NCBI GenBank assembly: GCA_965231135.1
Contig: OZ246419.1
Coordinates: forward strand, 733,865-797,864
From: an uncultured Gammaproteobacteria bacterium
GTDB taxonomy: Bacteria; Patescibacteriota; Microgenomatia; UBA8517
DNA length: 64,000 nt
Direction of reading: 5' to 3'
In this document: positions 12,867 through 58,783 of the stretch, one piece after another
How positions within the stretch are numbered: the stretch's first letter is position 1
How the letters are laid out: every line of letters starts with the position of its first letter
Notes under the pieces: model-generated
What the model was told of the DNA's origin: nothing
Databases searched by the model: none
The model's input: only the letters and a program-made list of their open reading frames with translations
Position numbers and translations under genes: made by a program

Positions 12867-12878
12867 GCATATATTATA

Positions 12879-30813: not shown

Positions 30814-31055
30814 TTATTTAATACCTAAATAAATCCAAACTCTATTCTCTCTGACCTTAATAAGAGCATTTGTGTCAACAACTATCTGCTGTTCATAACC
30901 TCTTTGCCTAAAAATAATTTGTTTTTCAATAATAGATATAAAATTAGAATGATCGTCTAAGATATCAAAAATACCACTTTTATTGTAGGAAGTTATATTG
31001 TCAACTTCTCCCTGAAAGACTATTTTATCTCTGTTTTTAACTAATAAACTTAGCA

Positions 31056-31056
<1 letters not shown>
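30814..31056 (-). CDS. atpC: F-type ATP synthase epsilon subunit (N-terminal beta-sandwich only, 80 aa)
   Basis: Position directly after atpD with shared boundary at 31056; LLVKNRDKIVFQGEVDNITSYNKSGIFDIL resembles the epsilon N-domain. Confidence 0.65.
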
Positions 31057-32438
<1,382 letters not shown>

Positions 32439-33314
32439 TTAAATAAATCTCCTTTGAGAAACCACTGTCGATAAATATTCTAATTGTTTTTTATTTGTTC
32501 TTGCATGAGCAAGTTTCAAATTTTGTGTTTTTGCTATCTCAAGATTTTTTCTAACCTTTTCTCCTGCCTGATCCATAGCAAGCATACGTGAGGCAAATTT
32601 GGCCAGCTGAGATTCTGTAATTGTCTGTTCAAAAATTGAAGAGAACATTTCTTTTTCGAAAAACATTAAAATTTCTTCCAGACTTGGTTCGAATAAATAT
32701 TTTATTTTCCTTCCCTTCTCGTCTTTATTTACTGGAGTTTCTGCAGATATAACTACTTCTTCTGGATCTTGATTGATTATGCTTTTAAACTTTCCATAAA
32801 AAATATGGATCTCTTCGTATTCGACCAAGTGACGAACAAGATCTCCCATCTTTTCTCTATCAAATCCGAAATCAGGAAGATCAAAATATGAATAAGATTT
32901 ATCCGGGAAAGATTGACGAAACATTTCTAAACCAAGAGTACCCACAATTGTAGCTTCGTAATCTCTTTCTCTAACTTCCTGAATAAATTTATTAAAAACT
33001 TTTCGAGTTAAATCGCCATAAAAGCCTGTATTTGCAGAAATAAATACTGCTACAGTTTTACCGTTATGACTTATTAACTTTAGTTTTTGACCGTTTTTGA
33101 TACCTTTTTTCTTTAATAATTTTTGAAATTCATCAGTGTATGATGCTTGTAATTCTTTAAATATTTGCTGCATATCTTCCAAGAATTCTCTAGAAGAAAG
33201 AACTGAACCTCTTGTAGCTTTCATGCGGCTTGAGGAGATTTGTGCATAAGCATCTGCTAATACACCTAATATTTCAAGATCAGTAACTTGTTTAGTAGTA
33301 TTTTTCTTGTCCAT
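32439..33314 (-). CDS. atpG: F-type ATP synthase gamma subunit
   Basis: Position between atpA and atpD; coiled-coil termini; ...QITESQLAKFASRMLAMDQAGEKV... matches gamma. Confidence 0.8.
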   Translation of the reverse strand: MDKKNTTKQVTDLEILGVLADAYAQISSSRMKATRGSVLSSREFLEDMQQIFKELQASYTDEFQKLLKKKGIKNGQKLKLISHNGKTVAVFISANTGFYGDLTRKVFNKFIQEVRERDYEATIVGTLGLEMFRQSFPDKSYSYFDLPDFGFDREKMGDLVRHLVEYEEIHIFYGKFKSIINQDPEEVVISAETPVNKDEKGRKIKYLFEPSLEEILMFFEKEMFSSIFEQTITESQLAKFASRMLAMDQAGEKVRKNLEIAKTQNLKLAHARTNKKQLEYLSTVVSQRRFI

Positions 33315-34737
33315 AATTTCCTTCTCTAAGCTTGTTCAGGAAGTCTGAATAAGCGGATGTTGATTTGATTAAAGAATCGATCTTATTTTTGAAATTTGCG
33401 TCTTTTTCATAATCGCTTACCATAGTTTTGATTTTTTCTTTCATTTGGAGAGGAGCCTGGTTTCTCCAAGAACCTGTCCAAAGCATTGCAATACATAAAA
33501 TACTTATATTTATAGGCATCACATCAACTGGCTGATTAAAAAATTCAAGAATCCTATCCCCCAACTTAAGCTTTTGCAAAACGTCTTCTGATAATTCTGC
33601 TCCAAAATGTACGAAGTCTCTTAATTTTTCAAGACTAACAAGAAATGAACTTAAATCACGGGTAATATCGCGAAGTAATGGAGTTTGGGCCTGTCCTCCT
33701 ACACGGGTAACTGATAAAAACGGATTAATTGGCGGGCGGCGTCCTAAGTTTGCCAACTCTGAGTCAAAGAAAATATGACCGTCTGTGATAGACATAAGAT
33801 TAGTTTGAATATATCCAGATAAATCTCCCAGGATTGATTCTGCTACAGGAAAACATGTAATTGAACCTGTTTTAAAATTTCCAGCACGTTCTAATAACTT
33901 TGAATGAAGATAAAAAATGTCTCCTGGATAAGAATTGCGGCCTGGAAAACGGCCTGCAAGAAGCGAGATCTGACGATAATATTTTGCGTGAGTTGTGAGA
34001 TCATCAAGAATAACGACTACATCTTTGCCCTGATCTCGGAAATGTTCTGCAATGGTCATAGCTGTATAAGGAGTCAAATAAATTAACCCTGGAGCATCTG
34101 AAGAAGCTGAGGCAACAATGATTGTATTTTGTAGCACCCCTTTTTTCTTAAGCGTGTTTAAAATTTCTTTTATTTCAACAATTCTTTTTCCGACCGAAGC
34201 GTAAATACAAATATTTTCTTTCTGAGTTTGATTGACAATTGTCTTAATAAAAAATTGAGTTTTTCCAGTTTTGCGATCTCCGATCACTAACTCTCTTTGG
34301 CCTTTACCGATTGGGATAACAAGATCAACAAGCGAGACTCCAGTTTCAAGAGATTCTTTTATTGGAGTTCTTGAAAGTAAATTTGGAGGTGTTGTATCGA
34401 TTTCTCTTATTGTTCCTGCAGGGCAGTTTTGATTATCTAAACAATGCCCGAGAGGATCCACTGTTTTTCCTAAAATTGCATTTGAAATATCAATTGATAA
34501 AGATTTATTTGTGCGAGCAACTTTTTGCCCAACTTTAATTGGAACATGGGACAAAACAAGAACTTCCGAATGTTCATTTGAGATAGAAATTGTCTGGCCT
34601 GTCTCTCCATTATCAAAAACAACAACTTCGTTTGGCTTTAAAGAAGGAAGGCCGCTTACGTAGACTATTGAATGCAACACTTCTTTTACTTCTCCGATTT
34701 CACCTGTTTCATTTAGATAATCTTGGTATTTTGGCAT
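33292..34737 (-). CDS. atpA: F-type ATP synthase alpha subunit
   Basis: Walker A GDRKTGKTQ; ILDDLTTHAKYYRQISLLAGRFPGRNSYPGDIFYLHSKLLERA. Confidence 0.92.
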   Translation of the reverse strand: MPKYQDYLNETGEIGEVKEVLHSIVYVSGLPSLKPNEVVVFDNGETGQTISISNEHSEVLVLSHVPIKVGQKVARTNKSLSIDISNAILGKTVDPLGHCLDNQNCPAGTIREIDTTPPNLLSRTPIKESLETGVSLVDLVIPIGKGQRELVIGDRKTGKTQFFIKTIVNQTQKENICIYASVGKRIVEIKEILNTLKKKGVLQNTIIVASASSDAPGLIYLTPYTAMTIAEHFRDQGKDVVVILDDLTTHAKYYRQISLLAGRFPGRNSYPGDIFYLHSKLLERAGNFKTGSITCFPVAESILGDLSGYIQTNLMSITDGHIFFDSELANLGRRPPINPFLSVTRVGGQAQTPLLRDITRDLSSFLVSLEKLRDFVHFGAELSEDVLQKLKLGDRILEFFNQPVDVMPINISILCIAMLWTGSWRNQAPLQMKEKIKTMVSDYEKDANFKNKIDSLIKSTSAYSDFLNKLREGNYGQEKYY

Positions 34738-34738
34738 A

Positions 34739-35188
34739 TTAGAAAGAGTTTAAAGTTTCGTTTATTAATTTATTTATGGAGCCATCAAAAAATTTTCCTT
34801 TATAGGAAAAGGTTGCTCCAGCGATAATTTTGGGATCCACTTTTATATCTAAAGCAATCTTATGATCTGTATTTTTTTGTAGCCAATTAGTTATTTTTTC
34901 AATTAAAATTTCTGACGGTTCTTTTGGAATTGTTATTTCTAAAAATTCAATTTTTTCAAGAAATTCTTTTATTTTTTTTATCACTTCTTCTTTGTTTTGA
35001 CCTTCTGTTAATTTTGAAATTGTATCTGCAAATGTTTTTTTGATTTTATTTTTAAGAACAAAATCAAAATTTTCTTTTTCTTCATAAATCGACTTCTCGA
35101 GAAGATCTAAATCGTTTTCAATATTTAAAACGTCATCACGAGTTGATACAAAATTAATAATTTCAGAATAAATTTGATCGTTTTGCAT
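34739..35188 (-). CDS. atpH: F-type ATP synthase delta (OSCP) subunit
   Basis: Position between atpF and atpA; 149 aa, helical, C-terminal IIAGATFSYKGKFFDGSINKL resembles the delta C-terminus. Confidence 0.6.
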   Translation of the reverse strand: MQNDQIYSEIINFVSTRDDVLNIENDLDLLEKSIYEEKENFDFVLKNKIKKTFADTISKLTEGQNKEEVIKKIKEFLEKIEFLEITIPKEPSEILIEKITNWLQKNTDHKIALDIKVDPKIIAGATFSYKGKFFDGSINKLINETLNSF

Positions 35189-35684
35189 TTTCTAAAGCCT
35201 TTAAAATAAGTTCGTCTTGTTTATTGTCATCAATAGAGCTTGAAACTATATCTGTAAATTTGCTTTTTAAGAGATCGTTTGCAGTTTTTCTAATTCTTTG
35301 AAATTCACTTGCTTTATATTTTTCAATTTCGTCTTTTGCGATATCGTATTCTGCAGAAACAGCTTTATCTTCTCCCCTTTTTTCTTCTATTAGATCTTCG
35401 ACGGTTTTCCTTTTTATTGAGTTTGCAATATTTTTAGCATTCTTTTCTATAAGTTCTACTGCTTCTAAACTTGCTTTTTGAATTGCATCGTCTAATTTCT
35501 CACTTGTAATACGGCTTGTATCAAGGTTTATTTTTCGTTTTATTTCATTTTTTTCAATATTTAATTTAAGATTTGTGTACTTATCAAGCGTTTTTTTATA
35601 TAGGAAAACTAGATACAAAACACAACCTAAAAGGACTGCAGTTATTAACATAAAAACTATAAATATAATTGACAAAATACTCAT
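35163..35684 (-). CDS. atpF: F-type ATP synthase B subunit
   Basis: A single N-terminal TM helix followed by a long charged coiled coil; operon position. Confidence 0.7.
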   Translation of the reverse strand: MSILSIIFIVFMLITAVLLGCVLYLVFLYKKTLDKYTNLKLNIEKNEIKRKINLDTSRITSEKLDDAIQKASLEAVELIEKNAKNIANSIKRKTVEDLIEEKRGEDKAVSAEYDIAKDEIEKYKASEFQRIRKTANDLLKSKFTDIVSSSIDDNKQDELILKALENAKRSNLF

Positions 35685-35688
35685 ATTT

Positions 35689-37386
35689 TCAGCTTAATAG
35701 ATTTTTGCCTGTCATGACAGGTGGAATTTCTAAACCTAATAATTTTAAAATTGTTGGAGATATATCAGCAAGGATTCCTTTTGGAATTTGTTTATTAGAT
35801 CTAAATAAATTTTTACTTACAGCGATGAAAGGCACTGGATTTGTGGTGTGATCTGTGCTCATTTTCCCTTTGTCTGACGTAAAAAAGAAACTGCTTGAGT
35901 CATATCTAAGTTTTTGTTCAGCATTTCCATGATCTGCTGTAATCAATAACGTACCATTACAAACCATAACACTTTCGGCGATTTCTTTAAGGCATGCATC
36001 GACTGCTTTAATGGCTTTAATAGTTGCTTGTATATTTCCAGTATGCCCAACCATATCAGCATTTGCTATGTTCATAACAATAAATTTATACATGTCTTTG
36101 TTTAAAACTTTTTTAAATTCTTCGGTTAAAGAATAAACTGACATTTCCGGCTTTTTGTCATATGTTGGTACATGGGGAGAAGGAACAATTGCGACGTCTT
36201 CTCCTTCCTGCTTCTCTTCCCGAAGGCCGTCAAAGTAATAAGTTACAAAACGCTCTTTTTCGCTTTCTGCCATATGCATTTGTTCAATATTATTTTTTGA
36301 AAGAATAACAGACAAACAATCAGAAACTATTTCAGGCGGAAAGCCGATGTCATTTACTGGGATATTTTTTTGATATTGTGTCATTGTTACAAAATAAAGG
36401 TTTGATAATACCCCTCCTCTTGCAAATGGCTCTTTATCTAAAACAACTTCTTTATCTCCTTCGTGTTTATGTTCGTAATCAACAGCGTAAGGGTCAAATT
36501 CCCATGTTAAATTTGATTTTGTAAAATCTTTTATAACAAAAGACATCGTAAGCTGTCTTGGTCTATCAATTCTAAAATTAAAGAAGACCGCAGCGTCGTT
36601 ATTTTCAACCAAACCGTTTTTGTTAATAATTGTTGGTACGATAAATTCATCAGTAATACCTGCAGCGTAGCTAGCCTTTAAGGCTTCGCTTGCTGAAGTT
36701 GCTGTTGGACCGATTGCTTTTACCATTGCCTCATAAGTTTTTTTAGTACGATCCCACCTTTTATCGCGGTCCATTGCATAATATCTTCCAGATATTGTTG
36801 CGATTTGGGCAGATTTTGTCTTATTAAGATAATCTTCGAGTTTTGTAACGACATTAATTCCCTCCTGTGGAGGTGCATCACGACCATCTGTGAATAAGTG
36901 AATATAAATAGGTCTTGTGTTATTTGTTTTTTGGAAAAATTCTAGTAGTGCATATAAATGATCTATAGATGAATGAACTTTTCCTGTACTTACAAGCCCC
37001 ATGATATGAATTTTGGAATTATTTTTTTGTGCGTGGAATCCGGCATGATAAAAAGCTCTGTTCTCAAAAAAAGAACCATCCTGAATTGCTTTATTTATTT
37101 TTGGAAGATCTTGTAAGATTACACGCCCAGCTCCGATATTTAAATGACCTACTTCAGTATTTCCCACTTCATTTGCCGGTAAACCAACAGATTCTCCTGA
37201 TGCTAAAAGTTCTGAATGCGGGTAGTTTGCAAGTAGATTGTTATAGTTATCTGGATTTGCAAGAGTAATTGCATTTCCATCTGATGCCGGAGCTATTCCC
37301 CATCCGTCAAGTATGACTAGAACAACCGGATTTGTTTTTCCGGCATTTACTTTTACTTTTGGTTTTGAAAAAAGACTAAAAAACAT
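35689..37386 (-). CDS. gpmI: 2,3-bisphosphoglycerate-independent phosphoglycerate mutase
   Basis: N-terminus VVLVILDGWGIAP; ...NADMVGHTGN...; 565 aa, typical iPGM size. Confidence 0.88.
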   Translation of the reverse strand: MFFSLFSKPKVKVNAGKTNPVVLVILDGWGIAPASDGNAITLANPDNYNNLLANYPHSELLASGESVGLPANEVGNTEVGHLNIGAGRVILQDLPKINKAIQDGSFFENRAFYHAGFHAQKNNSKIHIMGLVSTGKVHSSIDHLYALLEFFQKTNNTRPIYIHLFTDGRDAPPQEGINVVTKLEDYLNKTKSAQIATISGRYYAMDRDKRWDRTKKTYEAMVKAIGPTATSASEALKASYAAGITDEFIVPTIINKNGLVENNDAAVFFNFRIDRPRQLTMSFVIKDFTKSNLTWEFDPYAVDYEHKHEGDKEVVLDKEPFARGGVLSNLYFVTMTQYQKNIPVNDIGFPPEIVSDCLSVILSKNNIEQMHMAESEKERFVTYYFDGLREEKQEGEDVAIVPSPHVPTYDKKPEMSVYSLTEEFKKVLNKDMYKFIVMNIANADMVGHTGNIQATIKAIKAVDACLKEIAESVMVCNGTLLITADHGNAEQKLRYDSSSFFFTSDKGKMSTDHTTNPVPFIAVSKNLFRSNKQIPKGILADISPTILKLLGLEIPPVMTGKNLLS

Positions 37387-37389
37387 TTA

Positions 37390-38160
37390 TTAAATAATTA
37401 AAACTAGATAAGCTGCAACTAGGCCTACAAGAACAATCGCAATCATGACTGCGACGTTTATAATAACGCTTGCCTGAATACGGATTCCTGCCAAAGGATT
37501 TCTTCCGATTGCTTCAACTCCCGTTTTTGCAATACGGCCAAAGTAGACAAATCCTATGACAAATGATGAAATAACAAGAATTGAGGCGAGAATGTAACGA
37601 AGGGCAGAAATAGGACTTATACCCAAACCTGCAAGGCCGTTTTGTAAAAGAGAAACTAAATTTGTTCTTGCATTTAAATTTAAATCTGTTCGCGGATGGA
37701 TATTTAAACTTGCTTGAATGGTTCCAATCGCATTTTTGTCAGTAGAATTGTAATCCTGAAGAGCTGTTCCAATCACAAAACCAGGATTAATTGATAACTC
37801 TGCCACTCCCGGAATTTTAGAGCTTGTTAAGAAATCTCCCTTTTTAATTTCTCCATTTATAGAAGAAACTCGAAGAGGAACTTCACCTCTTGAAACTACT
37901 GTTTGAGAATTAGTTAAGTCTACTATTTGTACATCTGCTGAAGGATTGGAGTCTACAACCCCATACATAGAAGAGTCGTATTCATTTTGACAGAGAATAT
38001 AGCCTGATGATCCCGAACAAATTATGTCTCCGTCTTGGATATTATTACCACTAACAGAAATTGAAGAACCCACATCTGTAAAAGATTGTGTCTGAGCAAA
38101 AACATTATTTGTACTTAAAATTCCTAATATAAATATTACTAATAAAATTTTTTTGGGCAT
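37390..38160 (-). CDS. Secreted/membrane protein: signal peptide, about 170-aa Cys-containing extracellular domain, C-terminal two-helix hairpin resembling an F0 c-subunit fold
   Basis: Signal peptide MPKKILLVIFILGILSTNNVFA. Hairpin ...FGRIAKTGVEAIGRNPLAGIRIQASVIINVAVMIAIVLVGLV resembles c-subunit helix1-ARQPE loop-helix2 but has no helix-2 carboxylate. The extracellular domain is homologous to the C-terminal domain of the neighbouring giant protein. Confidence 0.55.
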   Translation of the reverse strand: MPKKILLVIFILGILSTNNVFAQTQSFTDVGSSISVSGNNIQDGDIICSGSSGYILCQNEYDSSMYGVVDSNPSADVQIVDLTNSQTVVSRGEVPLRVSSINGEIKKGDFLTSSKIPGVAELSINPGFVIGTALQDYNSTDKNAIGTIQASLNIHPRTDLNLNARTNLVSLLQNGLAGLGISPISALRYILASILVISSFVIGFVYFGRIAKTGVEAIGRNPLAGIRIQASVIINVAVMIAIVLVGLVAAYLVLII

Positions 38161-38323
38161 GGCGTATTAAGTAATACTACTTATTACCAAAACACTGGTC
38201 AATACCCTATCGAAAAAAATAAGTTGCTTATTGACAAGCTACTTTAATAAATGTCTTAATGTATATACAAAATCTTGGACAATGTCTAAATTTTTGAAGC
38301 TAATATAAAAATATTTAAATACT

Positions 38324-41300
38324 ATGAGTAAACTGCCCCGAAATAAATATATCTCCATTAATGAAGCTGCAATAAAACTTGGAGTATCTACTAAAACCTT
38401 AAGAAGATGGGAAGTTGCTGGAAAACTTATTGCAGTAAGAACTAATGGCGGCCACAGAAGATATGAAATTTCAAAACTTACAGAGTTAAAGATAAATGGT
38501 TTTAAGACGCCAAGAAAAGAATATATAAAGAAAATTGTTGTTAATCAAACTGTTAGTGATACCCCGAAAATAATTAAGATAGATAATATAGTAGAACCTC
38601 TTAAAATAAACCCTAATATCATCACTGAAGCATTACCTACTCCAATAGATATATATAATGCCCCAACGCTTGCACCTCAGCAAAAAAATATTCTAAAAAT
38701 AGTTGGTTTTTCTTTTTTTGGTTTTATTTTGATTGCAGGAGTATTTAAAATTTCTCCCGCAGTAATCTCCGCAACGAACTTATTCAAAGCTAATGCGGAT
38801 AATATTGCGGTAAATTACTTTCCAGGTATGCCTGGTGCTGTTAAAAGTTTTTTAAGCTCCAGGAATAATAATTTTGCGGATAATAAAGATGTGGCCTCAA
38901 AATTTGGACAAAATGTCCAAGTTTTGGCAGCAGAGACAAAAGCTAATGTCCCGGTTTTTAATGTAAACATTGAGTCTTCTTTTAAACAAGTTGCGGATTT
39001 TGTAAAGGGTTTAACATCAACCGATGTTTCAACTGGAACGCTGGAAGCATCAGACAATGCAACTTTTGCAAAAAATGTTGATATATCAGGCGATTTGACT
39101 TCATCAAGTGCAACATTTAATTTATTACCAAAAAACGTAACATCTCTTAATATCGGACTTACCTCAACTACAACAAGTATTTCAGCAACAACCGGTACTA
39201 CTACTATTAATAATGATTTAAATGTTAAAGGTGCCACCGCTCTTTCTGGTGCTCTTAATGTCGGTGGTAAGATTACAGGAAGCGGAGATTTAGCAATTTC
39301 GGGAGCAAGCGTATTGTCTGGAGCTTTAAATGTTTCTGGAGTGACGACACTTGCATCAGACCTCTCAGCGGCAGGAAACGCAACATTTGGCAATATTACT
39401 AAAGTTAATGGAGTGACTTATTCATTTCCTACAACTCAAGGAGCAGGCGGATCTACGTTAACTAATGACGGTTCGGGAAATCTCAGTTGGGTTAGCGGAA
39501 GTGGCAGTGGAACAATCGGTTTTTGGACAAGAACTGGAACAATATTAACACCAGCTACTGAAGGAGACACAATAGCAACTACCGGACAAATTGGAGCAGG
39601 AACAACAACACCAAGCTACCAGCTTGATATACAAAACCCAATTTCAGCCAACAACGGTATTCTTGCCAACTTTGCTTTATCAAATTCAAATACCGGAGCT
39701 GGAATCATTACAAACGGTATAAACGTATCTGCAACCGGGTCTATTCCAGCGAGCGGAACTAATACGAATAACCTTATTAATCTTTCAGCAATAACTGCTG
39801 GAAGTAATACTTTTAATGGAATAAATTTTGGTTCAGGTTTATCAAACTATATAAATAGTACAAATTTCATTGTCACTGCCGCTGGAGCAGAGACCCTTAA
39901 TTCTTCTTTGGTTGCAGTTGGAGTAAATGCCCAAAGCGGACTTCTTCAAGGCACAGGTGGACTAACTTTAACTGGGACAACAAATATAAATAGTACAGGA
40001 GTTGCAAATACTACTGTTGGTAATACAAGTGGAACGCTTGCTTTATCTTCTAACGCTTTTAACCTTGATACTTCAGGAAATATAACAGGAGTTCCAAGCT
40101 TAGATACAATCAACGTTTCATCTACTGCCTTAACATTTGCAGGAGCTGGAACAATTGATTCAGGAACAGCAAACGCTCTCAATCTTGGGACGGGAAATAA
40201 CGCAAAAACCATAAACATTGGAACAGGAAATGCTGGCAATATTATTAATATAGGAACAAATGATACAACCGCTGATGCAATTAATATTGCAAGCGCAAAA
40301 GACACCACTACACTTGCAGGCAACATTAGTCTTACTAATTTATCACTTGGCACTGGAAGTGCTTTGTGTTTAGATGGATCAAACAATTTAGTAACATGTA
40401 CTACTGGAACAGGCGGTATTTCTGGAAGCGGTGCAAGCGGACAAATTGCATATTATAACGGGGCAAGTAGCATTACAGGGAATAATAGTTTTTTCTGGAA
40501 TACGGCAACCACACAGCTCGGAATCGGAACAAATTCAACAACAGCTGGAGTTACTATTGCTGAAAATAGCGGTGACTTAATTGATGCTGGAACAACATCA
40601 AGCACTAAATTTACTCTTGATAATTCTGGAAACATTTTAGTTTCTCCTTCAACAAGATATGATACATTAACTTCCGGAACTCTTGGCGTCGGAACAACAA
40701 ACGCCACAACAGTAAACGTAGGAAACCTGAGCTCAACTACAAATTTAATTGGGGCAACAAATATTAATACAACAGGAAGCGGAAATACAACGATCGGCAA
40801 CGGAAGCGGAACTGTGGCTTTAAATCTGGGATCTGATGCAACTGGAGATATTTATTACAGAAATTCCGGTGGAACCTTAAGTAGACTAGGGATTGGATCG
40901 TCAGGACAAACATTAACAGTTTCAGCTGGAATCCCAAGCTGGGTTGGAGGCTCTGGAGGGACTGGAAGCTCGGGTTTTTGGAGTAGGACATCAGGGGGTG
41001 TTTTATCACCTGCAACAGCAACAGATACATTCAATCTAGCTCCTAATACAACAAACGGAACTGGAGTGAACGCTGGATTTAATTTGCAAGCAAACTCATT
41101 AACAAGTGGAAACGCTGTTGACATATCAAGCAGCTCAATAACAAGCGGTAATTTATTATCACTTTCTTCTACTTCAACGGCTTTTACATCTGGAGCAATT
41201 GCAAACCTCAGCTGGTCACCAAGTGCTTCAACAACTGCAACTGGAGATTTATTAAAACTTAATGTTGGTTCTAATGGAATTTTAGGTAATATTCTTGATG

Positions 41301-44300
41301 TACAAAATAATGGTTCAACTATATTTGGAGTGAGCCAAACTCAAATAATAGCTGCTCTTCCAACACAGTTCACTGCAGCTGGAGATGTTGGATTTGCATA
41401 CGATGTTAATTTTACAAATCCGGTTGCAAGTAATATCAAGTCCAGTTCTAATCTTAATATTGCTGCTGGCGAAACATTTAATTCATCAGATCTGACTTTG
41501 ACAACATATAATGCCGGAAATATTTTACTAAATACAGGTACAAGCTCGACAGGAAACGGGAAAGTTGGAATTGGGCCGTCAGTTACCCCCACTTCCTTAC
41601 TTACAGTAAACAATGCAAATGAATTATCAAACATAGGACAATCATTAGCTTTATTTAATCAGACTGAAAATCAAGATATTATGACCGCCAGCAATTCAGG
41701 GACAACAAGATGGACACTTGGATATCAAGGAAATATAACGGGAACTGCGGTAAATACCAGCGGCAACAGCTATAGTTACACGAATACAGCACTTAATACA
41801 ACAAGCGCAAATCTTCAGGCACTGGCATTTACAAATGCTGCATCAAGCGGAAGCATAACAGTAAGCGGAGAAAATATAACTGCAACAGGAACTGCAACTT
41901 CTGGAACAAACACTAACAATCTAGTAAATTTAAGTGTTGCAGCTGCGGCAAGTAATAACACATTTAATGGTATTAATTTTGGAAGCAATTTAACTAACTA
42001 TATAAATGGAACAAATTGGGTGGTAACAGCAGCAGGAAATGAAACGATAGCAGGAATAAATGTCACAGGACTTACAGCAAACTCAGCTGTATATACTGAT
42101 GGAAGCAAGAATTTAACAACATCAGCCCCAAGCTCTGGAGCTCTTGGATATTGGACTAGAACAGGAACTACACTCTCACCTACTACAAGCGGTGATGCTG
42201 TGACAACTTCTGGAAATATTTCTACAACTGGGTCAGGAACTATAACTAGCGCGTCAGATCTGGCGGTTAACGGATCAAATTTCACAAGTAGTTCAAGCTC
42301 GTTTAACCTACTGAATTCAACCCCAACAACTATTAATTTTGGGGGAAATGCTACAACTGCACTTAATATCGGCAATGGAAATAGTGCCTACACTGCAATA
42401 AACTTTGGAAGTGGAACCGGAGGCAATACAATTGGTATTGGAAATGGAGCTAACACAGGAGCGCAAACGATTAATATCGCTGCTGGAGCAGCAGGGGCAA
42501 ATTCAACAGTAAATATTTTATCAGGAATTGCAACTTCCGGGACACAGACACTTAATCTTGGAACAGGAGCTTCTGCAAAAACAGTAAACATCGGTAATTC
42601 AACAGGCGCGACAGCACTGAATTTCACAAGCGGTACAGGAGCTCAAACATTTGCATCAAGTGTTGTAACTGGCACGACAACCTCTGGAGCATTTGCATTC
42701 AATGCAAACTCTTTGACAACTGGCGATGGACTTTATCTTAATTCGTCTAGCATAACAACAGGCAATCTGCTAAATATCACATCTACCTCCACTGCTTTCA
42801 CTTCAGGTAATTTGGCAAGCATTTATTGGAACCCAGGATCTTCTACTACTGCAACTGGAGATTTATTAAAACTTAATGTTGGTTCTAATGGAATTTTAGG
42901 TAATATTCTTGATGTACAAAATAATGGTTCAACTATATTTGGAGTAAGCCAAACTCAAATTTCAAATAATTTACCAGTTTCATTTAATGCTCCTGGAGAT
43001 ATTGTTGATGCATATGACTTTTCATTTACGAATCCAGTTTCAAGCAACATAAAATCTTCTGCTCCGCTTACTATTGCAGCTGGCGAAATATTTAATTCTT
43101 CTAATTTGACTTTAACTACATATAATCTTGGAAATATATTATTAAATAGTGGAACAAGTACGGGTGGAAACGGACTTGTTGGAATTGGCCCTTCAGTATC
43201 TCCTACTTCACTTTTAACAGTTGATAATACCAATGAATTGTCGACAATCGGCCAATCTCTTGTACTTCTTAATCAAACAGAAAGCCAAGATATTTTAACA
43301 GCAAGCAATTCAGGAACAACAAGATTTAAGATAAATTCTGCTGGAAACACATTTACAACTCTAAGAAGTACAGGAACTGCAGCACTTTGTCATACTACAA
43401 ACGGAGCAGGATTTGATGAAATAACAGATTGTTCTGGAACTCCAGCTGCAGATTATGCTGAGTTTTATCCAACAGACGGAAGCGTTGATTATGGCGATAT
43501 CGTTGCTCCAAGCAGCCAAACCGTAACAACTAAAGTAAGCGACGGTCAAGGAGGAATAATTACCGGACAAACACAGCAAACTTCAGTTTTAACAAAGTCT
43601 AGTTTAGCTTATCAAGGAAATGTGATCGGAATAGTATCGAATAACTATAATGACTTTACATCAACCGGATACAATATAGTTGATCCTTCAAATAATCCAA
43701 AGCCAGTTGCTCTTAATGGACGTGTTCCCGTAAAAATTGCAACAGATTCTCCTGAGATTGCTCCAGGAGATTATCTTACAACTAGCGATCAACCTGGACG
43801 CGCAACTAAAGCTACACAAGCCGGAAGAGTTATTGGTATGGCACTTGAAAACTGGAGCTCTTCAAGCGGCAAAGATACAGTATTGGTTTTTGTAAATAAT
43901 ACCTGGTACGATCCTAACGCTGATGCAATCGCTGCAACAGGAAGCGCACAACTAAACAACATTGCATTAATGCTTCAAGATAGCTTTACAGCAAGCGATA
44001 GCGGAATTATTGCAAACTTACACGAGCTTGATACTGCAAAATTGAATGTACTTGGAGATACGACTTTGGGAGATACAGTTGTAAACGGCAAGCTTAATGT
44101 TGGCGGATTGACATTTGATGATACTAATCAATCAATAAATGCAATAGGCGTTTTGAAAATTCAAGACTTAGCTTTGGGAAATGTTGAATTTATGAACGGA
44201 CTGATAACTTTTGATACAAACGGAAATGCAAAGTTCCAATCTGTTACTGCTAATAAATATAATGTTGCTGGAACATCGGCTGGAACAGGCACAATTACAG

Positions 44301-44494
44301 CTGGAGCAACAAATGTTATTATTAATACTAATGCTGTTAACAACAGCTCTTTAATCTTTGTAACCGCAAGCACAGCAACAAGCAAGGTTTTAGCGGTAAC
44401 AACAAAGGTTCAAGGAACAAGTTTTACAGTTTCGATTCCGACAGCAGACATCAATAATATTAATTTCAATTGGTGGATTGTTGACAAACAATAA
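38324..44494 (+). CDS. Giant (2056 aa) membrane-anchored repetitive Ser/Thr/Gly/Asn-rich protein with an N-terminal cytoplasmic HTH (excisionase/MerR-type) domain, one TM helix, and a long beta-helix-like repeat region
   Basis: HTH YISINEAAIKLGVSTKTLRRWEVAGKLIAVRTNGGHRRYEI (nt ~38345-38500); TM ILKIVGFSFFGFILIAGVF (nt ~38690-38747); internal duplicated modules; a non-repetitive Cys-containing C-terminal domain (~43.3-44.5 kb). Confidence 0.75.
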   Translation: MSKLPRNKYISINEAAIKLGVSTKTLRRWEVAGKLIAVRTNGGHRRYEISKLTELKINGFKTPRKEYIKKIVVNQTVSDTPKIIKIDNIVEPLKINPNIITEALPTPIDIYNAPTLAPQQKNILKIVGFSFFGFILIAGVFKISPAVISATNLFKANADNIAVNYFPGMPGAVKSFLSSRNNNFADNKDVASKFGQNVQVLAAETKANVPVFNVNIESSFKQVADFVKGLTSTDVSTGTLEASDNATFAKNVDISGDLTSSSATFNLLPKNVTSLNIGLTSTTTSISATTGTTTINNDLNVKGATALSGALNVGGKITGSGDLAISGASVLSGALNVSGVTTLASDLSAAGNATFGNITKVNGVTYSFPTTQGAGGSTLTNDGSGNLSWVSGSGSGTIGFWTRTGTILTPATEGDTIATTGQIGAGTTTPSYQLDIQNPISANNGILANFALSNSNTGAGIITNGINVSATGSIPASGTNTNNLINLSAITAGSNTFNGINFGSGLSNYINSTNFIVTAAGAETLNSSLVAVGVNAQSGLLQGTGGLTLTGTTNINSTGVANTTVGNTSGTLALSSNAFNLDTSGNITGVPSLDTINVSSTALTFAGAGTIDSGTANALNLGTGNNAKTINIGTGNAGNIINIGTNDTTADAINIASAKDTTTLAGNISLTNLSLGTGSALCLDGSNNLVTCTTGTGGISGSGASGQIAYYNGASSITGNNSFFWNTATTQLGIGTNSTTAGVTIAENSGDLIDAGTTSSTKFTLDNSGNILVSPSTRYDTLTSGTLGVGTTNATTVNVGNLSSTTNLIGATNINTTGSGNTTIGNGSGTVALNLGSDATGDIYYRNSGGTLSRLGIGSSGQTLTVSAGIPSWVGGSGGTGSSGFWSRTSGGVLSPATATDTFNLAPNTTNGTGVNAGFNLQANSLTSGNAVDISSSSITSGNLLSLSSTSTAFTSGAIANLSWSPSASTTATGDLLKLNVGSNGILGNILDVQNNGSTIFGVSQTQIIAALPTQFTAAGDVGFAYDVNFTNPVASNIKSSSNLNIAAGETFNSSDLTLTTYNAGNILLNTGTSSTGNGKVGIGPSVTPTSLLTVNNANELSNIGQSLALFNQTENQDIMTASNSGTTRWTLGYQGNITGTAVNTSGNSYSYTNTALNTTSANLQALAFTNAASSGSITVSGENITATGTATSGTNTNNLVNLSVAAAASNNTFNGINFGSNLTNYINGTNWVVTAAGNETIAGINVTGLTANSAVYTDGSKNLTTSAPSSGALGYWTRTGTTLSPTTSGDAVTTSGNISTTGSGTITSASDLAVNGSNFTSSSSSFNLLNSTPTTINFGGNATTALNIGNGNSAYTAINFGSGTGGNTIGIGNGANTGAQTINIAAGAAGANSTVNILSGIATSGTQTLNLGTGASAKTVNIGNSTGATALNFTSGTGAQTFASSVVTGTTTSGAFAFNANSLTTGDGLYLNSSSITTGNLLNITSTSTAFTSGNLASIYWNPGSSTTATGDLLKLNVGSNGILGNILDVQNNGSTIFGVSQTQISNNLPVSFNAPGDIVDAYDFSFTNPVSSNIKSSAPLTIAAGEIFNSSNLTLTTYNLGNILLNSGTSTGGNGLVGIGPSVSPTSLLTVDNTNELSTIGQSLVLLNQTESQDILTASNSGTTRFKINSAGNTFTTLRSTGTAALCHTTNGAGFDEITDCSGTPAADYAEFYPTDGSVDYGDIVAPSSQTVTTKVSDGQGGIITGQTQQTSVLTKSSLAYQGNVIGIVSNNYNDFTSTGYNIVDPSNNPKPVALNGRVPVKIATDSPEIAPGDYLTTSDQPGRATKATQAGRVIGMALENWSSSSGKDTVLVFVNNTWYDPNADAIAATGSAQLNNIALMLQDSFTASDSGIIANLHELDTAKLNVLGDTTLGDTVVNGKLNVGGLTFDDTNQSINAIGVLKIQDLALGNVEFMNGLITFDTNGNAKFQSVTANKYNVAGTSAGTGTITAGATNVIINTNAVNNSSLIFVTASTATSKVLAVTTKVQGTSFTVSIPTADINNINFNWWIVDKQ
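41235..41346 (+). repeat. 112-nt direct repeat (copy 1) inside the giant gene, part of a roughly 1.6-kb diverged internal duplication
   Basis: Identical to 42849-42960 except one mismatch (gtgagcc vs gtaagcc); encodes GDLLKLNVGSNGILGNILDVQNNGSTIFGVSQTQI. Confidence 0.85.
42849..42960 (+). repeat. 112-nt direct repeat (copy 2)
   Basis: See copy 1; the flanking protein sequence is about 70% identical over roughly 500 aa. Confidence 0.85.
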
Positions 44495-47400
44495 TGAAAA
44501 AACTTTTCAAAAGAAAACCAAAATTATTTTACGGACTTATACTATTTATAGTAGTTATATCTTTAGTTGGAATAAAACTTTGGGCGGGTAAACCAGTACA
44601 AGGAGCATGGTTTGATACCAAGTGGGCTTTTCGACAACGCTTCCCTATTTCCAATACCTCCGGTGCAACACAAACAAATTTTCAGACGCAAATAACATTA
44701 GACACTTCAACATTAATAAGTGCAGGGAAAATGCTTTCGACTTGTAACGATTTGCGAATTACAAATGCAACTGGAAAACAACTTCCTTTTTGGATAGAGC
44801 CAACTACATGCAATACAGCTTCAACTTTAATCTGGATAAATGTTGATTCGATTCCAACAACAGGAGCTGATGTTTATTTATATTATGGAAATCCATCTGC
44901 AAGCCCTGCAGGGTATACAACTAACCAAGTTTTTATTACAGATATGAATCAAGCTGTTGCGGGTTGGCCTTTGGATGATACAACCACTACCCAAAGTTAT
45001 GCGAGAGCAGTGAATGGTGCGACTAGTACAGGAAGAAATTTAGTTTTAAACGGAACTTTTGATAGCAGCTCAAGTTGGAACTTTAATGGGACAGGTTGGA
45101 CTATTTCTGGTGGGATGGGAGTGGCTACAAACGCACAAACTACTGACCTTACTTATCAAAATGTTCCTTTGGTAGCTGGAAGAAGTTATCAAATCACTTA
45201 TACCATTTCTGGTTATACCTCAGGAAGTGTCAGGGTTCTCGCAGGAAATGGTGGCTTTGGAACGATGCGCTCAGCAAATGGAACATACACTGAAAATATT
45301 ATTGCAGCCGGAGCTTTATATGTGGGATTCCAAATTCCAGTGAATGGAACAACCCTAAATATTGATAACGTTTCAGTTACTGAAGTAAACATTCCCTCTT
45401 CTACTGCAACACCAACACAATTACTTACTGATGGAAATATGGAAGCAAGTGGGACGGGGGCGTGGACAGCAGGCGGAAGCGCAACACTTTCGAAACAAAC
45501 AGGGACTTCCCATGGAGGAACACAAATTTTAAGAATCACTGCAACCGGTGGTACAAATCCTAATGCTTCTCAGAATATTCTTTCTAACAATACTGTTTAC
45601 AGGGTTTATGGATATGCAAGAAGTGATGGGAATATTGCACCTAAAGTTTATTTGGGAAGTAATCTTATGTGGACTGGAACAACATCGGCAACCTGGCAAC
45701 CGTTTGACTTTGTAGGTTTAACTTCTACGGGTAATAGTACTTTTTATCTGCTTCAATCAAGCAGTATAAATGGCCAATATGTAGAATTTGACGACGTAAC
45801 AGTTTCCCTTGATACAGGCATAAGAAGTGATTCTATTTTATCTACACTTGATGGAGATATGGAACAGTCTGGGACTTCTTACTGGAGCACATTAAATGGC
45901 GCTACGATCTCGAAAGATGCCAGCAGTCCACATGGCGGAACTCAATCTTTAAAGATAGTCAGCTCTGGCGCCTCAAGCCAGAATGTATACCAGACTTACC
46001 TATCTAGCGTTGCAGGAAAAACTTATCGAATTACTGGGTACGCAAGAGGAGATGGAACTGCTGTTCCTCAAATTCTTTTACCAAACGGAGCTGCTTTGTG
46101 GACCGGAACAAATTCAAGTTCTTGGCAATCATTTGATGCAACGTATGTATATGTAGCTGCTTCTCCATACGGATCTCCAATTTTAAGGCCTCAAAATACT
46201 GCTCCTAACGGCGATTATGTTGAATTTGATGATATTATCATTAACGAAGTCGATCCTCTAGTTGGAATCCCTACAAACGGAGTAACTCTTGGAGCTAGTG
46301 CAAACGGCCATCTCACTAATGCATATTCTTTTGATGGCACAAATGATAATGTGAATATTTATTCAGGAAGCTTAAATTCTGTCTTTAATCCTTCTGAAGG
46401 AACAATTGTGGCATGGGCAAAAGTAAGTGGAGCTGGAGTGTGGACAGATGGAACTCAGAGAGTGATTGTGAGAATTGGCCGTGTGGATGGAAATAATAAT
46501 TTAACTATTTCCAAAAGCGCGTCATCTAATACACTTACGGCTTCTTATGTTGCTGGAGGGTCAAATTTAACTGCTAATACAACTACTTCAACAAGCGGAT
46601 GGTTTATGGTTACACTAAGCTGGTCTAAGAGCAGTGACCAGGTTAAACTTTATTTAAACGGCACGCAATCAGGATCGACTTTGACAGGAGTTGGTACATG
46701 GAGCGGAAATTTTCAAAGCGTTAACTCAGTTATTGGAGATGCAAGTACAACACCCGGTTTTCCATGGAGCGGGCTCATTAATGATGTACGAATTTATAAT
46801 TACGCATTAACACCGGCCCAGATTGCCGCACAATACAACGCATCTTATGACACACAAAACTACACAACTGCAAACGATACAGGACACGAATTGGTGCGAG
46901 AGTACAATACAAACATTACAGTTGGAGCGGCTGCAACAGAAGAAGTTGGGCAAGCTTCAATATTAAACTGGCATTTGGACGAAGGAAATGGAACAACTGC
47001 AAACGATGCAAGCACAAATGCAAATAACGGAACTTTAGCTGGCACTACTCCACCATCCTGGCAAACTGAAAATAATTGTGTAATTGGTAAATGTTTGCTT
47101 TTTGACGGACAGAGCTCAAAAATAACTGGAACAAAGGCAGCTAATAATTTGCAAACTGTAGCTTTCTGGATTTATCCAACTGATATAACAAGCCGCGGGA
47201 TTATGAACTTAGACGGCGGAACTCACAAAATATCTTTGAGTTCGTCTGGAATTGTAACTGCTACAGGCTGGTCTTCTCCAACATATTATGTAAATGGTAT
47301 TGCAACAACAAATCCTGTTTTATCCTTAAATCAATGGCAGTATGTGGAAATTACAACAGCAACACCTTTCTCTACTTCAAGCTCTTTTACAGTCGGGACT

Positions 47401-50400
47401 GACGGGAGCACTTTTACACAAGGATATTTGGATGAAATAAAATTTTATAATTATGCAAGAAGTGCTGCACAGGCACTTGCGAATTACAATTCTGTCGGAA
47501 ATTTGATTGGAGCTGCAAGACAATACGGACCAAACGGATTAATTGCAAACTGGGGGCTACAAGATACAACTTCTACACAAAGTTATGCAAGTGTAAGCAA
47601 TGCAGGACAAAGTACTGGACGTAATATAGCTGTTGACGGAGACATGGAAGCCTCAGATACAAGTGCGTGGACAAATGCAGGTTCTGGAGCAGCTTTTACC
47701 AAAGATACAACTAATCCTCATGCTGGATCTAGAGATTTGAGAATTACTTGGGTGTCAGGATCTAATCCTTTGGCACAGTTAGTTAGCAATCCAATAGTAA
47801 TTGGCAGATCATATCGAGTTCGCGGATGGTTTAAATCAGACGGTTCTCATACTTCTGGAGTCTATGACAACTCCACTCCTTTAGCTGTTTCAACTACTGG
47901 AGGTTCCTGGGAATCTTTTGATATTACTTATGTTGCCACTACCACAGGTTTACGTTTTCGTGTCAACACTAGCTCTGCTGGATATGCCGATTTTGATGAT
48001 ATTACAGTTCAGGAAGTTAATATTCCTTCTTCTGCAACAACACCAGCTCAACTACTTACTGATGGAAATATGGAAACTTCTGGAACTGCTGCATGGACAG
48101 CAGGTTTTTCAGCAACTTTATCAAAACAAACAAACAACCCTCATAGTGGTGCTCTAGTATTAAGAGTAGCTTCAAATGGCTCGCTTCAAGGGTATGCGGG
48201 TCAGAATATTCTTACGGTAGGAAATGTCTATCGTATTTATGGTTATGCAAGAAGTGATGGAACCGCTATTCCCAAAATTGCAGGAAACTCTGTAACATAT
48301 TGGGGCTCTGGAACAAATTCAACAACCTGGCAACCTTTTGATGTTGTGTTAGTAGCTAGTAGTGGATCCTTATTGGCTCTCCAAAATCAGACCACAAGTG
48401 GCTATGTTGAGTTTGATGATGTGACAGTTTCACTTGATACTGGAATAAGATCTGATTCTATTTTGTCTACTCTTGATGGAGATATGGAACAAAGTGGAAC
48501 GAGCTACTGGACAGCTGCAAACGCTGCTACGCTTTCAAAAGATTCATCTGCTTCTCATGGTGGAACTCAAGCTTTAGAAATCTTATGTACTGGCACAGGA
48601 AATCCTGCTGCGAGGCAAACGCCACTTTTAACTGGCAAAACCTACAGGTTGACTGGCTGGGCAAAAGGCGATGGTACAGTTGGCCCATCAGTCGTTGTTG
48701 CTTCAGGTGCAATTTGGACTGGAACAGCTTCGACTTCGTGGCAATTTTTTGATGTAAGTTGGATTGCAACTTCTAATTTAATCAGTCTTGTCGCTGCTAC
48801 TTCTAGCAGTGGTAAATTTGTGGAATTTGACGATCTTACATTAACTGAAATTTCACCTCTTTCTGGAATAAATACAAACGGAGTAACTGTAGGAGCTGCT
48901 GCAAACGGACATTTAACTAATGCATATAGTTTTGATGGGACAAATGATTTTGTAAATATTTATTCAGGAAGTTTGAATAGCGCCTTTAATTCAAGTGAGG
49001 GCACACTTATTGCGTGGGCTAAAGTGAATGGAAGTGGAGTTTGGACAGATGGCTCAGTTAGGAGAATTGTTAGTTTGTCAGTTGACGGCAGCAATCTCAT
49101 TTCATTGGCAAAATCAAATGCAAATAACACGCTTATTATGCAATATTATGCTGGTGGTACAGCTTCTTATGTCTCTAACGGTTCTGACCCAAGTGGTTGG
49201 TTTCAAATTGCTATTACCTGGAGTAAGTCAACCGATCAAGCAAAAGGTTACCTTAACGGCACCCAACAAGGGGCGACGATGACAAATTTGGGTACATGGG
49301 CAGGAAACCTTACTTCTAGCAGAGTCACTATTGGAGCCGACACGACTTCAGGTTCCAATCCATGGTCTGGCCTCATCAACGACGTCCGTCTTTATAACCG
49401 CGCTTTATCCCCTGCTGAAATTTCACAGCTTTATAACTATGCTCCAGGGCCTGTTGCTTACTGGAAGATGGATGAAGGCACTGGAACAAATGTCAATGAT
49501 TCATCAGGAAATGGGAATACTGGAACATGGAATGGAACTTTAGGGAGTCAATGGGCTAGTGGAAAATATGGAAAAGGAGGAAACTTTAATGGGACTGATA
49601 ATTATGTTTCTGTCTCAAGTTCAAATACTTTGGGTCCCACTGCAATTACTATGGCAGCTTGGGTAAAATTACCGTCGGGTTTTGCTTCAAATGGTGATGT
49701 AATAAACAGAGGAGATAATAGTGGTTACAGAATGCAAATCACGGCGGGAAAAACAGTTGCTTTTGATGATCGTGGAGCTACCAATCAGGTTAATCCATCC
49801 ACGACCTTAACTACTGGAGTTTGGAATCATATAGAAATGGTTGGTGATTCTTCTGGCCTAAAAGTTTATTTAAATGGGGTATTGATTGGAAGCAATTCTA
49901 CAGCCTATGGAGGAACAAATACAGGAAATCTCTTAATAGGTAGCCGTTTTACCAGTTCTGGATATTTGCCAGCAGTTATTGATGATGTGAAAATTTATAA
50001 TTATGCAAGAACTCCTCAACAAATTTTAGATGATATGAATGGCGGACAAAACGCAAACAATTTGTCTGCGCAAGGAAATAGTTTGCCCAAACCTTTGGAC
50101 TATTGGAAATTTAATGAAGGTTATGGAACAACAGCAAACAACTCTGGAGTTAACTCAACGGAAACTGGAACATTAAATAGCGCAACATGGTTGCTTAATA
50201 ATAATTGCAAAGCTAATAATTGTGTAAATATATCTGCAAGTACTAATAATGTTTCTTTTGGAGATGTTAGTTATATTGATTCTCTAACTGGTTTTTCAAC
50301 TGACTTTTGGGTAAATCCGCAGGTTTTGGGTACTTCTAAGATGATACTTTCAAAAGCGAACACTAGTTCGCAGCGAGTTTTCGCAATCGAGACAGATCCC

Positions 50401-52242: not shown

Positions 52243-52267
52243 GAGATAGAATGAATATATTTAATAA

Positions 52268-58741: not shown

Positions 58742-58783
58742 TTGGGTTGACATAGCTTCCTAAGAAAGGAATAATAAACATAC

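Follow-up and report, generated by a model that had tools for sequence, protein, structure and literature searches.

Membrane-acting transmembrane transcription regulators (TTRs) make up a recognised class of proteins, and the single-pass form is the commonest among them (56%) (PMC10269533). In ToxR, TcpP and CadC a cytoplasmic N-terminal DNA-binding domain is followed by one transmembrane (TM) helix and an extracytoplasmic C-terminal domain, and these proteins regulate from the membrane; their DNA-binding domain is a winged helix-turn-helix (HTH) of the OmpR/PhoB type, and their periplasmic sensor domain has approx. 100–250 amino acids (aa). Here we describe the gene of a giant protein with the same order of parts, located in a stretch of 64,000 nucleotides (nt) of contig OZ246419.1 (assembly GCA_965231135.1, positions 733,865 to 797,864), deposited as an uncultured Gammaproteobacteria bacterium and placed by GTDB in the Microgenomatia of the Patescibacteriota; this whole stretch is referred to as the window. 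The giant protein, which is likened to the TTRs from sequence alone, combines a DNA-binding domain and at least one TM region in a single chain, which is how TTRs are operationally recognised (PMC10269533), but its winged HTH is of the BldC/MerR type without a dimerisation or effector domain, and its C-terminal part is a fibre of 1,900 aa, which in relatives can be as long as over 5,000 aa. Neither the MerR type nor the Patescibacteria are discussed in the TTR survey (PMC10269533). On balance we favour the view that the giant protein is a membrane-tethered and probably autoregulatory transcription regulator, similar to ToxR and CadC in its way of working, with a BldC-like HTH that would bind its own leader and a fibre as ectodomain.

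Other described systems share single aspects with this protein. RodZ has an N-terminal cytoplasmic HTH, a single TM helix and an extracytoplasmic domain in the same order; its HTH, of the XRE type, binds MreB and not DNA. RacA from Bacillus subtilis and the Xis proteins or recombination directionality factors (RDF) are architectural DNA binders that have a MerR-like winged HTH without an effector domain; RacA anchors DNA to the cell pole, but it is soluble, reaches the membrane via DivIVA, and is a weaker match to the giant protein than BldC. BldC from Streptomyces is a free cytoplasmic protein of 68 aa, in contrast to the HTH described here, which is covalently tied to a membrane fibre. It contacts DNA through K26, T27, T29, R30, W31, K33, H46, R47 and R48; the changes R30A and H46E abolish DNA binding, and so does G44E, which affects a residue of the head-to-tail interface (PMC5859096).

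Architecture of the giant protein

The gene and the parts of its product are the following:

38324..44494, + strand: gene of the giant protein (HTH, linker, TM helix and ectodomain); ATG start, 2056 aa, single open reading frame (ORF)
38348..38500, + strand: BldC/MerR-type winged HTH, residues 9–59, predicted to be cytoplasmic (Pfam, PDB sequence match, AlphaFold2, Foldseek)
38501..38674, + strand: linker, residues 60–117, basic, weakly conserved and predicted to be disordered (pLDDT 55–64)
38675..38749, + strand: single TM helix, signal anchor, residues 118–142 (hydropathy; AlphaFold2 helix with pLDDT 83–92)
38921..38929, + strand: 'VLA' motif (QNVQVLAAET...FNV), residues 200–202, 59 residues past the TM helix; first conserved extracellular element
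40199..43546, + strand: internal tandem duplication of the fibre, residues 626–1194 and 1202–1741 (44% identity over 586 aa, E 3e-117)
43649..43864, + strand: ectodomain segment, residues 1776–1847, homologous to the ectodomain of the c-subunit-like protein encoded by the divergent gene (35% identity over 82 aa, E 1e-8)
44279..44491, + strand: conserved C-terminal domain (...NFNWWIVDKQ), common even to the minimal family member P0116 of 318 aa

A preliminary description of this locus had proposed an HTH at residues ~8–55, a single hydrophobic helix at ~123–141 and a long repetitive extracellular remainder, and the three parts were all recovered. The HTH spans residues 9–59, with the MerR model of Pfam above its cut-off and a pLDDT of approx. 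95 in the AlphaFold2 model; the mean Kyte-Doolittle hydropathy of 19-residue segments exceeds 1.6 only for those that start at residues 122–135 (covering 122–153), with a peak at 123–141, so this is the only such segment of the 2056 residues; and the remainder contains the duplication listed above, its extracellular location being read from composition. Residues 1–122 have 22 K+R versus 10 D+E, whereas beyond the N-terminus S/T/G/N account for 50–60% of the residues and K+R for 0.5–5%; this composition suggests a type-II membrane protein, i.e., with the N-terminus inside. In closer relatives, the end of the linker carries a juxtamembrane motif, (I/L)Y.P..L...QK..L, seen in the family alignment.

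The remaining ~1,900 residues make up a surface fibre that is repetitive and low in charge and includes a conserved C-terminal domain. No significant match to the fibre was found in Pfam, PHROGs or, by sequence, in the PDB; the match to K1-lyase_C was sub-threshold (E 0.008). The VLA motif recurs in the family, since a match to [VIL]L[AG] was found 4–64 residues (mostly 20–60) past the TM helix in 56/60 members; this expression is loose, and most of its matches lie in the fuller context VLA[ADE][TS]...F.[VI]N, those of L001, L053 and L073 being among the few that are probably spurious. The motif has the pattern small-x-small, as at a peptidase site.

The HTH, the TM helix and the ectodomain lie in one frame without an internal stop, and the second in-frame methionine is residue 168, downstream of the TM segment. 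These data bear on the possibility that the HTH is a separate small gene, or the remnant of an IS607 element, joined to the fibre by misassembly, a frameshift or a wrong start, which the preliminary description had also considered in the form of a true start downstream of the HTH. The nearest soluble relatives of the HTH are indeed the N-terminal domains of IS607-type serine recombinases, with 62–72% identity; nevertheless, neither a stop nor another ATG intervenes between the HTH and the TM helix, the giant protein, unlike these recombinases, lacks a resolvase domain and a transposon context and keeps its position in the chromosome, and the same fusion is present in approx. 65 independent genome assemblies and in the full-length orthologue P0007 (2023 aa), which aligns from residue 1 across the HTH, the linker, the TM helix and the fibre with ~47% identity. 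The chance that the fusion is an artefact is therefore practically negligible.

Identity of the HTH

The preliminary description had assigned the HTH to the excisionase/MerR type. The MerR side of this assignment was confirmed by Pfam, with 43.6 bits for MerR (PF00376) on residues 11–47 (gathering cut-off 28.2, E 2.6e-11) and 31.0 bits for MerR_1 (PF13411; cut-off 21.6); in contrast, the excisionase side stayed just under threshold, both with HTH_17 (PF12728; 26.2 versus 27) and with TIGR01764 (27.1 versus 28.8). The domain also failed the NCBIfam model of BldC (NF033787; 41.5 bits versus a cut-off of 77), and the IS607 model NF033518 gave 25.9 versus 110. A Pfam scan of the giant protein detected neither Resolvase (PF00239) nor, at E ≤0.01, the OmpR/PhoB-type domain Trans_reg_C (PF00486).

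A structure model, which had been proposed as a check, was obtained with AlphaFold2 and an alignment of 30 sequences, since a single-sequence model of residues 1–200 was uninformative (pLDDT 43). The model shows the HTH fold and a helix at residues 118–142; residues 9–59 were predicted with a pLDDT of ~95 in the order b1-a1-a2-wing-a3, and after helix a3 (residues 49–59) the chain is disordered up to the TM helix, while the Pfam matches end at residue 56. The model and Pfam thus agree that the coiled-coil dimerisation helix and the effector-binding domain of MerR are absent, from which it follows that this HTH, like BldC, should need DNA-templated or external oligomerisation.

The top Foldseek matches of the model were the BldC-DNA complexes 6ama and 6amk (rmsd 1.2–1.4 Å, target TM-score 0.74–0.83, 41–42% identity), followed by RacA bound to DNA, a mycobacteriophage Xis and classical MerR proteins; a sequence search of the PDB also retrieved BldC (E 3e-7). 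BldC is therefore the best match in both sequence and structure, and shares with the giant protein the lack of the MerR coiled coil. In the HMMER alignment to 6AMA and 6AMK, the BldC residues K26, T27, R30, W31, H46, R47 and R48 correspond to the identical residues K24, T25, R28, W29, H44, R45 and R46, which show full invariance, or a conservation of at least 90%, in the two family alignments; likewise G42, the counterpart of BldC G44, is invariant in them. Compared with three orthologues, the HTH is the best conserved segment of the N-terminal 230 residues (53–63% identity) and the linker the least conserved (24–31%). From these results we consider it quite likely that the HTH is competent for DNA binding. 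The giant protein is nevertheless not a canonical MerR or BldC protein, nor is it a member of the ToxR/CadC family, given that its HTH is of the BldC/MerR and not of the OmpR type.

A large family in Patescibacteria

The preliminary description had also suggested a search for further proteins with an HTH, a TM helix and a giant ectodomain. A HMMER search with residues 1–200 against 1.84 billion representative proteins gave 2,376 matches at E ≤0.001. Among the best 150 of these, 92 have one or more HTHs followed by a TM helix: a single HTH in 21, two in 69 and more in 2. At least 1,000 aa are present in 25 of the 92, with a maximum of 5,310 aa, and many of the short ones are contig fragments. 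The architecture is thus not peculiar to the window protein, which belongs to a very large family of Patescibacteria comprising thousands of proteins, with ectodomains from ~100 to more than 5,000 aa. At the N-terminus its members share a conserved module made up of one or two HTHs, the linker, the TM helix and VLA, and at the C-terminus a conserved domain of ~70 aa; between the two, a fibre of variable length is inserted; the 318-aa member in locus L083 keeps the C-terminal domain (...F.WWI..K) despite its minimal length. We regard the architecture of the giant protein and its assignment to this family as nearly certain.

In addition, one genome per GTDB species was scanned with the peptide S[TRA]KTLRRW[ED], which gave 212 confirmed places, of which 79 loci were kept. 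A continuous HTH, one TM helix at residues 75–215 and an ORF of hundreds to more than 3,400 aa, often running off the locus, were found in ~65 of the 79. The record titles in this set name Woese-, Levy-, Shapiro-, Ames-, Gottesman- and Chisholmbacteria, Saccharimonadales and WWE3. A group of metagenome-assembled genomes (MAGs) labelled 'uncultured Gammaproteobacteria' or 'Pseudomonadales' (L004, L006, L008-L010, L012 and ~25 more; 36–49% GC) has the gene order of Woesebacteria, i.e., ATPase, c-subunit-like gene and HTH-TM giant; since the synteny is the same, these taxonomic labels are probably wrong. The giant gene is a syntenic core gene in Microgenomates-type genomes. In locus L034, an apparent split with a stand-alone HTH was ruled out, given that the record contains a run of N (masked bases).

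Some members depart from the common plan. Tandem HTHs in 4–8 copies occur in P0006 (623 aa), P0012 (1511 aa), P0011, P0014 and P0019; in P0006 eight HTHs precede the TM helix, and in P0012 six are located near the C-terminus. Versions of ~200 aa without a TM helix, from cyanobacteria and others, are IS607-type serine recombinases. The ectodomain of P0017, a member with two HTHs and a TM helix, includes a Peptidase_S74 domain (residues 867–927), the intramolecular chaperone of phage tail spikes, which suggests trimeric fibres similar to phage tail fibres in part of the family; Pfam gave no Peptidase_S74 match in the giant protein of the window. A DNA-binding domain is also combined with a phage-fibre-type module in MYRF, a transcription factor of animals that is bound to the membrane and has an ICA/Peptidase_S74 domain resembling that of phage tailspikes. 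In MYRF, the Peptidase_S74 domain and the DNA-binding domain are found on one side of the membrane, and the former releases the latter, whereas in P0017 the Peptidase_S74 domain would be extracellular.

The preliminary description had also considered a release of the HTH by regulated proteolysis, in which the membrane form would be an inactive precursor and a signal from the fibre would lead to cleavage in or near the TM helix, so that the freed HTH of ~120 aa would act as a soluble BldC-like factor. The conserved juxtamembrane motif of the closer relatives would suit such a cleavage, as would the existence of soluble proteins with one to four HTHs of the same type, many of which are perhaps fragments. 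No protease gene is conserved in the neighbourhood of the loci, however, and no cleavage motif was identified; moreover, characterised TTRs can act while bound to the membrane (PMC10269533; PMC11856585), and a cell width of 100–300 nm (PMC11665869) keeps the DNA near the membrane. Activation by proteolysis is, in our opinion, very improbable.

An operator-like motif in the leader

The leader of the giant gene and its first codons contain three elements:

38231..38260, + strand: predicted promoter of the giant gene, TTGACA, 18 nt, CTTAAT (consensus match; same layout in related loci)
38275..38289, no strand: inverted motif pair TTGGACA a TGTCTAA, 35–49 nt upstream of the ATG
38333..38338, + strand: CTGCCC, a second conserved element at or next to the start codon, here codons L4–P5

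In the window, the -35 region of the predicted promoter is located at 38231–38236 and the -10-like sequence, which departs from consensus, at 38255–38260; a sigma-70 scan of 38100–38400 found no canonical promoter on the + strand. The two arms of the inverted pair are TTGGACA (38275–38281) and TGTCTAA (38283–38289). After a recurrent sequence had been noticed in a comparison of intergenic regions, 7-mers were counted without bias in the 150 nt upstream of 66 family genes and in 2,996 random windows of the same loci. The top 7-mer was TTGGACA/TGTCCAA, present in 54/66 leaders versus 1.7 expected (p 5e-74); the variant TTAGACA occurs in 25/66 and the -35-like CTTGACA, also enriched, in 32/66. 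With respect to the start codon, 105 copies of the motif fall at -100..-1 and 29 at -200..-101, over a background of 1–4 per 100 nt. An extended consensus derived from 134 instances reads AAAnTT(G/A)GACAwtt.

The copies are arranged in a regular manner. Consecutive copies are either inverted ('+-') and 19–21 nt apart (24 cases), or direct ('++') and exactly 10 nt apart (12 cases), and the usual order in the leader is TTGACA, ~17–18 nt, a TTAAT-like -10, TTGGACA-tttaAGCTAaa-TGTCCAA, ~20 nt and the ATG. The phasing by integer helical turns, the presence of both direct and inverted copies, and the position at or after the predicted transcription start argue for a DNA operator bound by a protein rather than for an RNA hairpin; repeats 10 or ~20 bp apart would lie on one face of the DNA helix. 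Among 1.09 Mb of loci plus the window, 85 close motif pairs were detected, 65 of them in these leaders, ~13 upstream of the divergent neighbour and ~6 elsewhere; in loci with long intergenic regions, the motif clusters upstream of the divergent c-subunit-like gene. That the motif is a general genomic element was ruled out, since the 7-mer is at chance level across the window (21 copies versus 21.5 expected). It was likewise ruled out that the TTGGACA copies are additional -35 elements, given that any -10-like sequence is ~20 nt away and that the copies are arranged in inverted orientation. The only Rfam matches in the window were three tRNAs, and none fell in the leader.

The unit AAAnTTGGACA consists of an A-tract and an invariant C, and in this it may resemble the AATT-N4-C unit of BldC (PMC5859096), although the BldC site itself is different. 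BldC forms cooperative multimers that occupy direct repeats in a head-to-tail manner (PMC5859096), an arrangement with which the repeats phased by 10 bp can be compared. In the Saccharibacteria member L080, near-copies of the motif are present.

The second element, CTGCCC(A), was found in 40/71 loci versus 0.6 expected, only on the + strand and 54–63 nt before the codons for KTLRRW. It falls in all three reading frames (23/13/7) and, with its restriction to one strand, this indicates selection at the nucleotide level; the element thus explains the 'LP' at residues 4–5 of the giant protein. In L080 there are two copies of CTGCCC 10 nt apart, and in L054 three copies of ACTTACCCAA, also 10 nt apart.

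Two further occurrences of the operator-like motif lie outside the leaders. A perfect pair, TTGGACAAAATGTCCAA, is located inside the giant gene (38904–38920), where it codes for FGQNVQ just before VLA; its position is not kept in other loci. At L017:5695–5711, a direct pair 10 nt apart precedes by ~150 nt the gene of a membrane or surface protein of 727 aa, 4.3 kb from the giant gene, which may be a further member of the regulon.

Proposed mechanism and other explanations

The preliminary description had compared the giant protein with ToxR and CadC. The domain order and the functional analogy hold, whereas membership of that family does not, there being no OmpR-type domain; the analogy with a regulator is now better supported, given that the DNA-contact residues are conserved, the HTH is the best conserved N-terminal segment and operator-like repeats occur in 54/66 leaders. 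In the mechanism that we propose, the HTH would stay held at the membrane and bind the AAAnTTGGACA repeats between its own promoter and start codon; in relatives, such repeats are also present upstream of the divergent ATPase operon headed by the c-subunit-like gene. A regulator and a divergent target that share one intergenic region are the classic layout of the MerR family. Since the coiled coil by which MerR proteins dimerise is missing from the HTH, binding would require several HTHs together, and these could be gathered either by oligomerisation or clustering of the fibres or, in most family members, by the second HTH in the chain. The surface-protein operon would then be expressed according to how much fibre is in the membrane or to its state of assembly there. 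The position of the motif at or after the predicted transcription start suggests repression. It is also possible that the fibre senses contact with a host.

Several points weigh against this reading. That the giant protein's own HTH binds the motif is the parsimonious inference, but another regulator could bind AAAnTTGGACA, and the sampling of loci with S[TRA]KTLRRW[ED] precludes a test of co-variation between recognition helix and motif. The two-HTH members L086 and L087, from other lineages, have no motif in their leaders; together with a recognition helix that is near-invariant in thousands of members whose ectodomains differ, this limits the link between HTH and motif to the syntenic Microgenomates-type subfamily. 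The motif copies in the window are atypical, being only 8 nt apart from start to start, and the topology of the protein was read from composition. Finally, the inverted pairs could form an RNA hairpin in the 5' untranslated region (5'-UTR); their arms co-vary weakly (G/C 16, A/T 4, G/T 4, A/C 1), which would fit RNA pairing as well as a homo-oligomeric protein.

The latter point leads to an explanation in which HTH and repeats have nothing to do with each other: a different regulator would bind the repeats, or they would form a hairpin in the mRNA leader that stabilises the transcript of a highly expressed envelope operon or gates its translation, while the HTH would interact with a protein, as RodZ does with MreB, or would merely ensure that the N-terminus stays inside. 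Inverted pairs with a spacer of 13 nt do allow a stem of 7 bp, the strand-specific CTGCCC at the start codon in three frames suggests signals at the level of RNA or translation, and the leaders of L086 and L087 without the motif are also in line with this idea. However, the direct repeats spaced by exactly 10 nt, seen in 12 loci or more, are not explained by a hairpin, and no hairpin is possible in the window, where the arms are separated by 1 nt; in many loci the first arm starts 3–6 nt past the -10, so that the transcript would probably miss part of it, and the sequence itself, not pairing alone, is kept in 54/66 species. Moreover, conserved BldC DNA-contact residues, which set the giant protein apart from RodZ, are hard to account for in a domain that does not bind DNA. 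We consider this explanation unlikely, while giving it some weight.

A different role for DNA binding would be that of an architectural tether, with the HTH holding the chromosome or the locus at the membrane in a RacA- or transertion-like manner, e.g., coupling the synthesis and the insertion of a protein of 2,000 aa, with no control over transcription. RacA bound to DNA and Xis, i.e., architectural MerR-like winged HTHs, are among the best structural and sequence matches, some members carry 4–8 tandem HTHs, and the near-invariance of the recognition helix despite unrelated ectodomains is what one common target would produce, which also counts against the autoregulatory reading. On the other hand, the motif is restricted to the leader of the giant gene and the region upstream of the divergent partner, with chance levels elsewhere, and its position at or after the predicted transcription start means that binding would affect transcription in any case. 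A purely architectural tether has, in our view, a low probability.

The divergent c-subunit-like gene and the ATPase operon

The genes on both sides of the giant gene are:

37390..38160, - strand: divergent partner of 256 aa that heads the ATPase operon; signal peptide, beta-rich ectodomain of ~150 aa and C-terminal c-subunit-like hairpin
30814..37386, - strand: remainder of the ATPase operon, i.e., iPGM followed by F-ATPase b, delta, alpha, gamma, beta and epsilon (Pfam)
44494..60829, + strand: co-directional downstream genes, i.e., two LamG/DUF2341 giants (2582 and 2157 aa) and a multi-pass TPR membrane protein (Pfam; gaps of -1, 25 and 42 nt)

A full-length orthologue of the 256-aa partner (36–47% identity) lies directly upstream and divergent in ~56/79 loci, and in ~48 loci the c-subunit-like gene is followed by F-ATPase genes. 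In L083, a co-directional series encodes the HTH-TM protein of 318 aa, a 273-aa orthologue of the partner (3971–4792), b-like and delta-like proteins and alpha; from this gene order, the 256-aa protein occupies the position of atpE. Some of its orthologues were named 'subunit c' by JGI.

The relation with subunit c is seen with sensitive comparisons. Pfam ATP-synt_C gave no match to the partner, and the similarity of its hairpin was weak with NCBIfam and became significant only with a family profile searched against the PDB, where the top 14 matches were all F-ATPase c subunits (best E 2e-5). The hairpin has two helices and the R-(Q/N)-P loop of a c subunit, here GVEAIGRNPLA. The profile consensus has a hydrophobic residue in the column of the ion-binding glutamate, and no Asp or Glu was found in the membrane-embedded part of helix 2 in 40 c-like orthologues; 4/40 have a Glu next to the loop, three residues past the loop Arg, and a polar Asn or His (rarely Gln or Ser) is conserved a few positions before the glutamate column. 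The beta subunit has intact Walker A, GERSRE and ELSEED motifs, and from its sequence looks catalytically intact. The signature of the a subunit, R-[LIVM]-x-[GAS]-N-x-x-G, was not found in the window or in 87 loci by a motif test on these stretches.

These features allow a more far-reaching proposal, in which the HTH-TM fibre, the c-like protein and the adjacent intact F1 genes would form one co-regulated envelope machine of Microgenomates: an extracellular crown on a c-ring, whose role would be that of an ATP-driven motor or of a platform on which the fibre is assembled and not that of a proton-coupled synthase, with the HTH feeding the state of the machine back to the shared divergent promoter region. 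We regard this proposal as quite unlikely.

Other neighbouring genes

The downstream giants and the TPR protein are probably in the same operon as the giant gene. Each of the two giants (44494..52242 and 52268..58741, + strand) contains a signal anchor of the ordinary kind at the N-terminus, DUF2341 and six Laminin_G_3 domains, without an HTH; a relative of the multi-pass TPR membrane protein (58784..60829), adjoining P0060, carries Wzy_C.

A second HTH of the same type is encoded elsewhere in the window. As the preliminary description had indicated, the product of 12879..13094 (- strand; 71 aa) is a paralog of the N-terminal HTH, with 39% identity over 49 aa (E 4e-8), and its gene is the first of an operon (7229..13094, - strand) that includes 7TM_transglut, ATPgrasp_ST, three RimK-like ATP-grasp proteins and a GATase/C26 peptidase. 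This operon looks like a peptide-modification or peptide-ligation system.

Significance for Patescibacteria

Fragments of the family have so far been annotated as 'MerR family transcriptional regulator' or 'excisionase family DNA binding protein', and in the literature that we searched no description of the architecture, the family, the motif or the link with the ATPase operon was found. The presence of an F-type ATPase in organisms without a respiratory chain is a recognised puzzle (PMC11665869), and it is touched by these results, given that in this lineage the c-like subunit lacks the carboxylate and has an extracellular domain, and that no gene of the a subunit was found nearby with the motif test. 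A c-like subunit with an ectodomain and without the carboxylate may be more unusual than the HTH-TM fibre itself.

Patescibacteria represent a large share of bacterial diversity. Their gene regulation and host sensing have been described as virtually unknown (PMC11665869), and the present analysis proposes a concrete regulatory circuit in which thousands of surface proteins would carry their own DNA-binding domain, with a candidate operator that is delimited to the base pair and kept in dozens of species. It would also extend the concept of TTRs to a BldC-type HTH without a dimerisation domain of its own; for such a domain, the oligomerisation of the extracellular fibre, or a second HTH, could be the switch.

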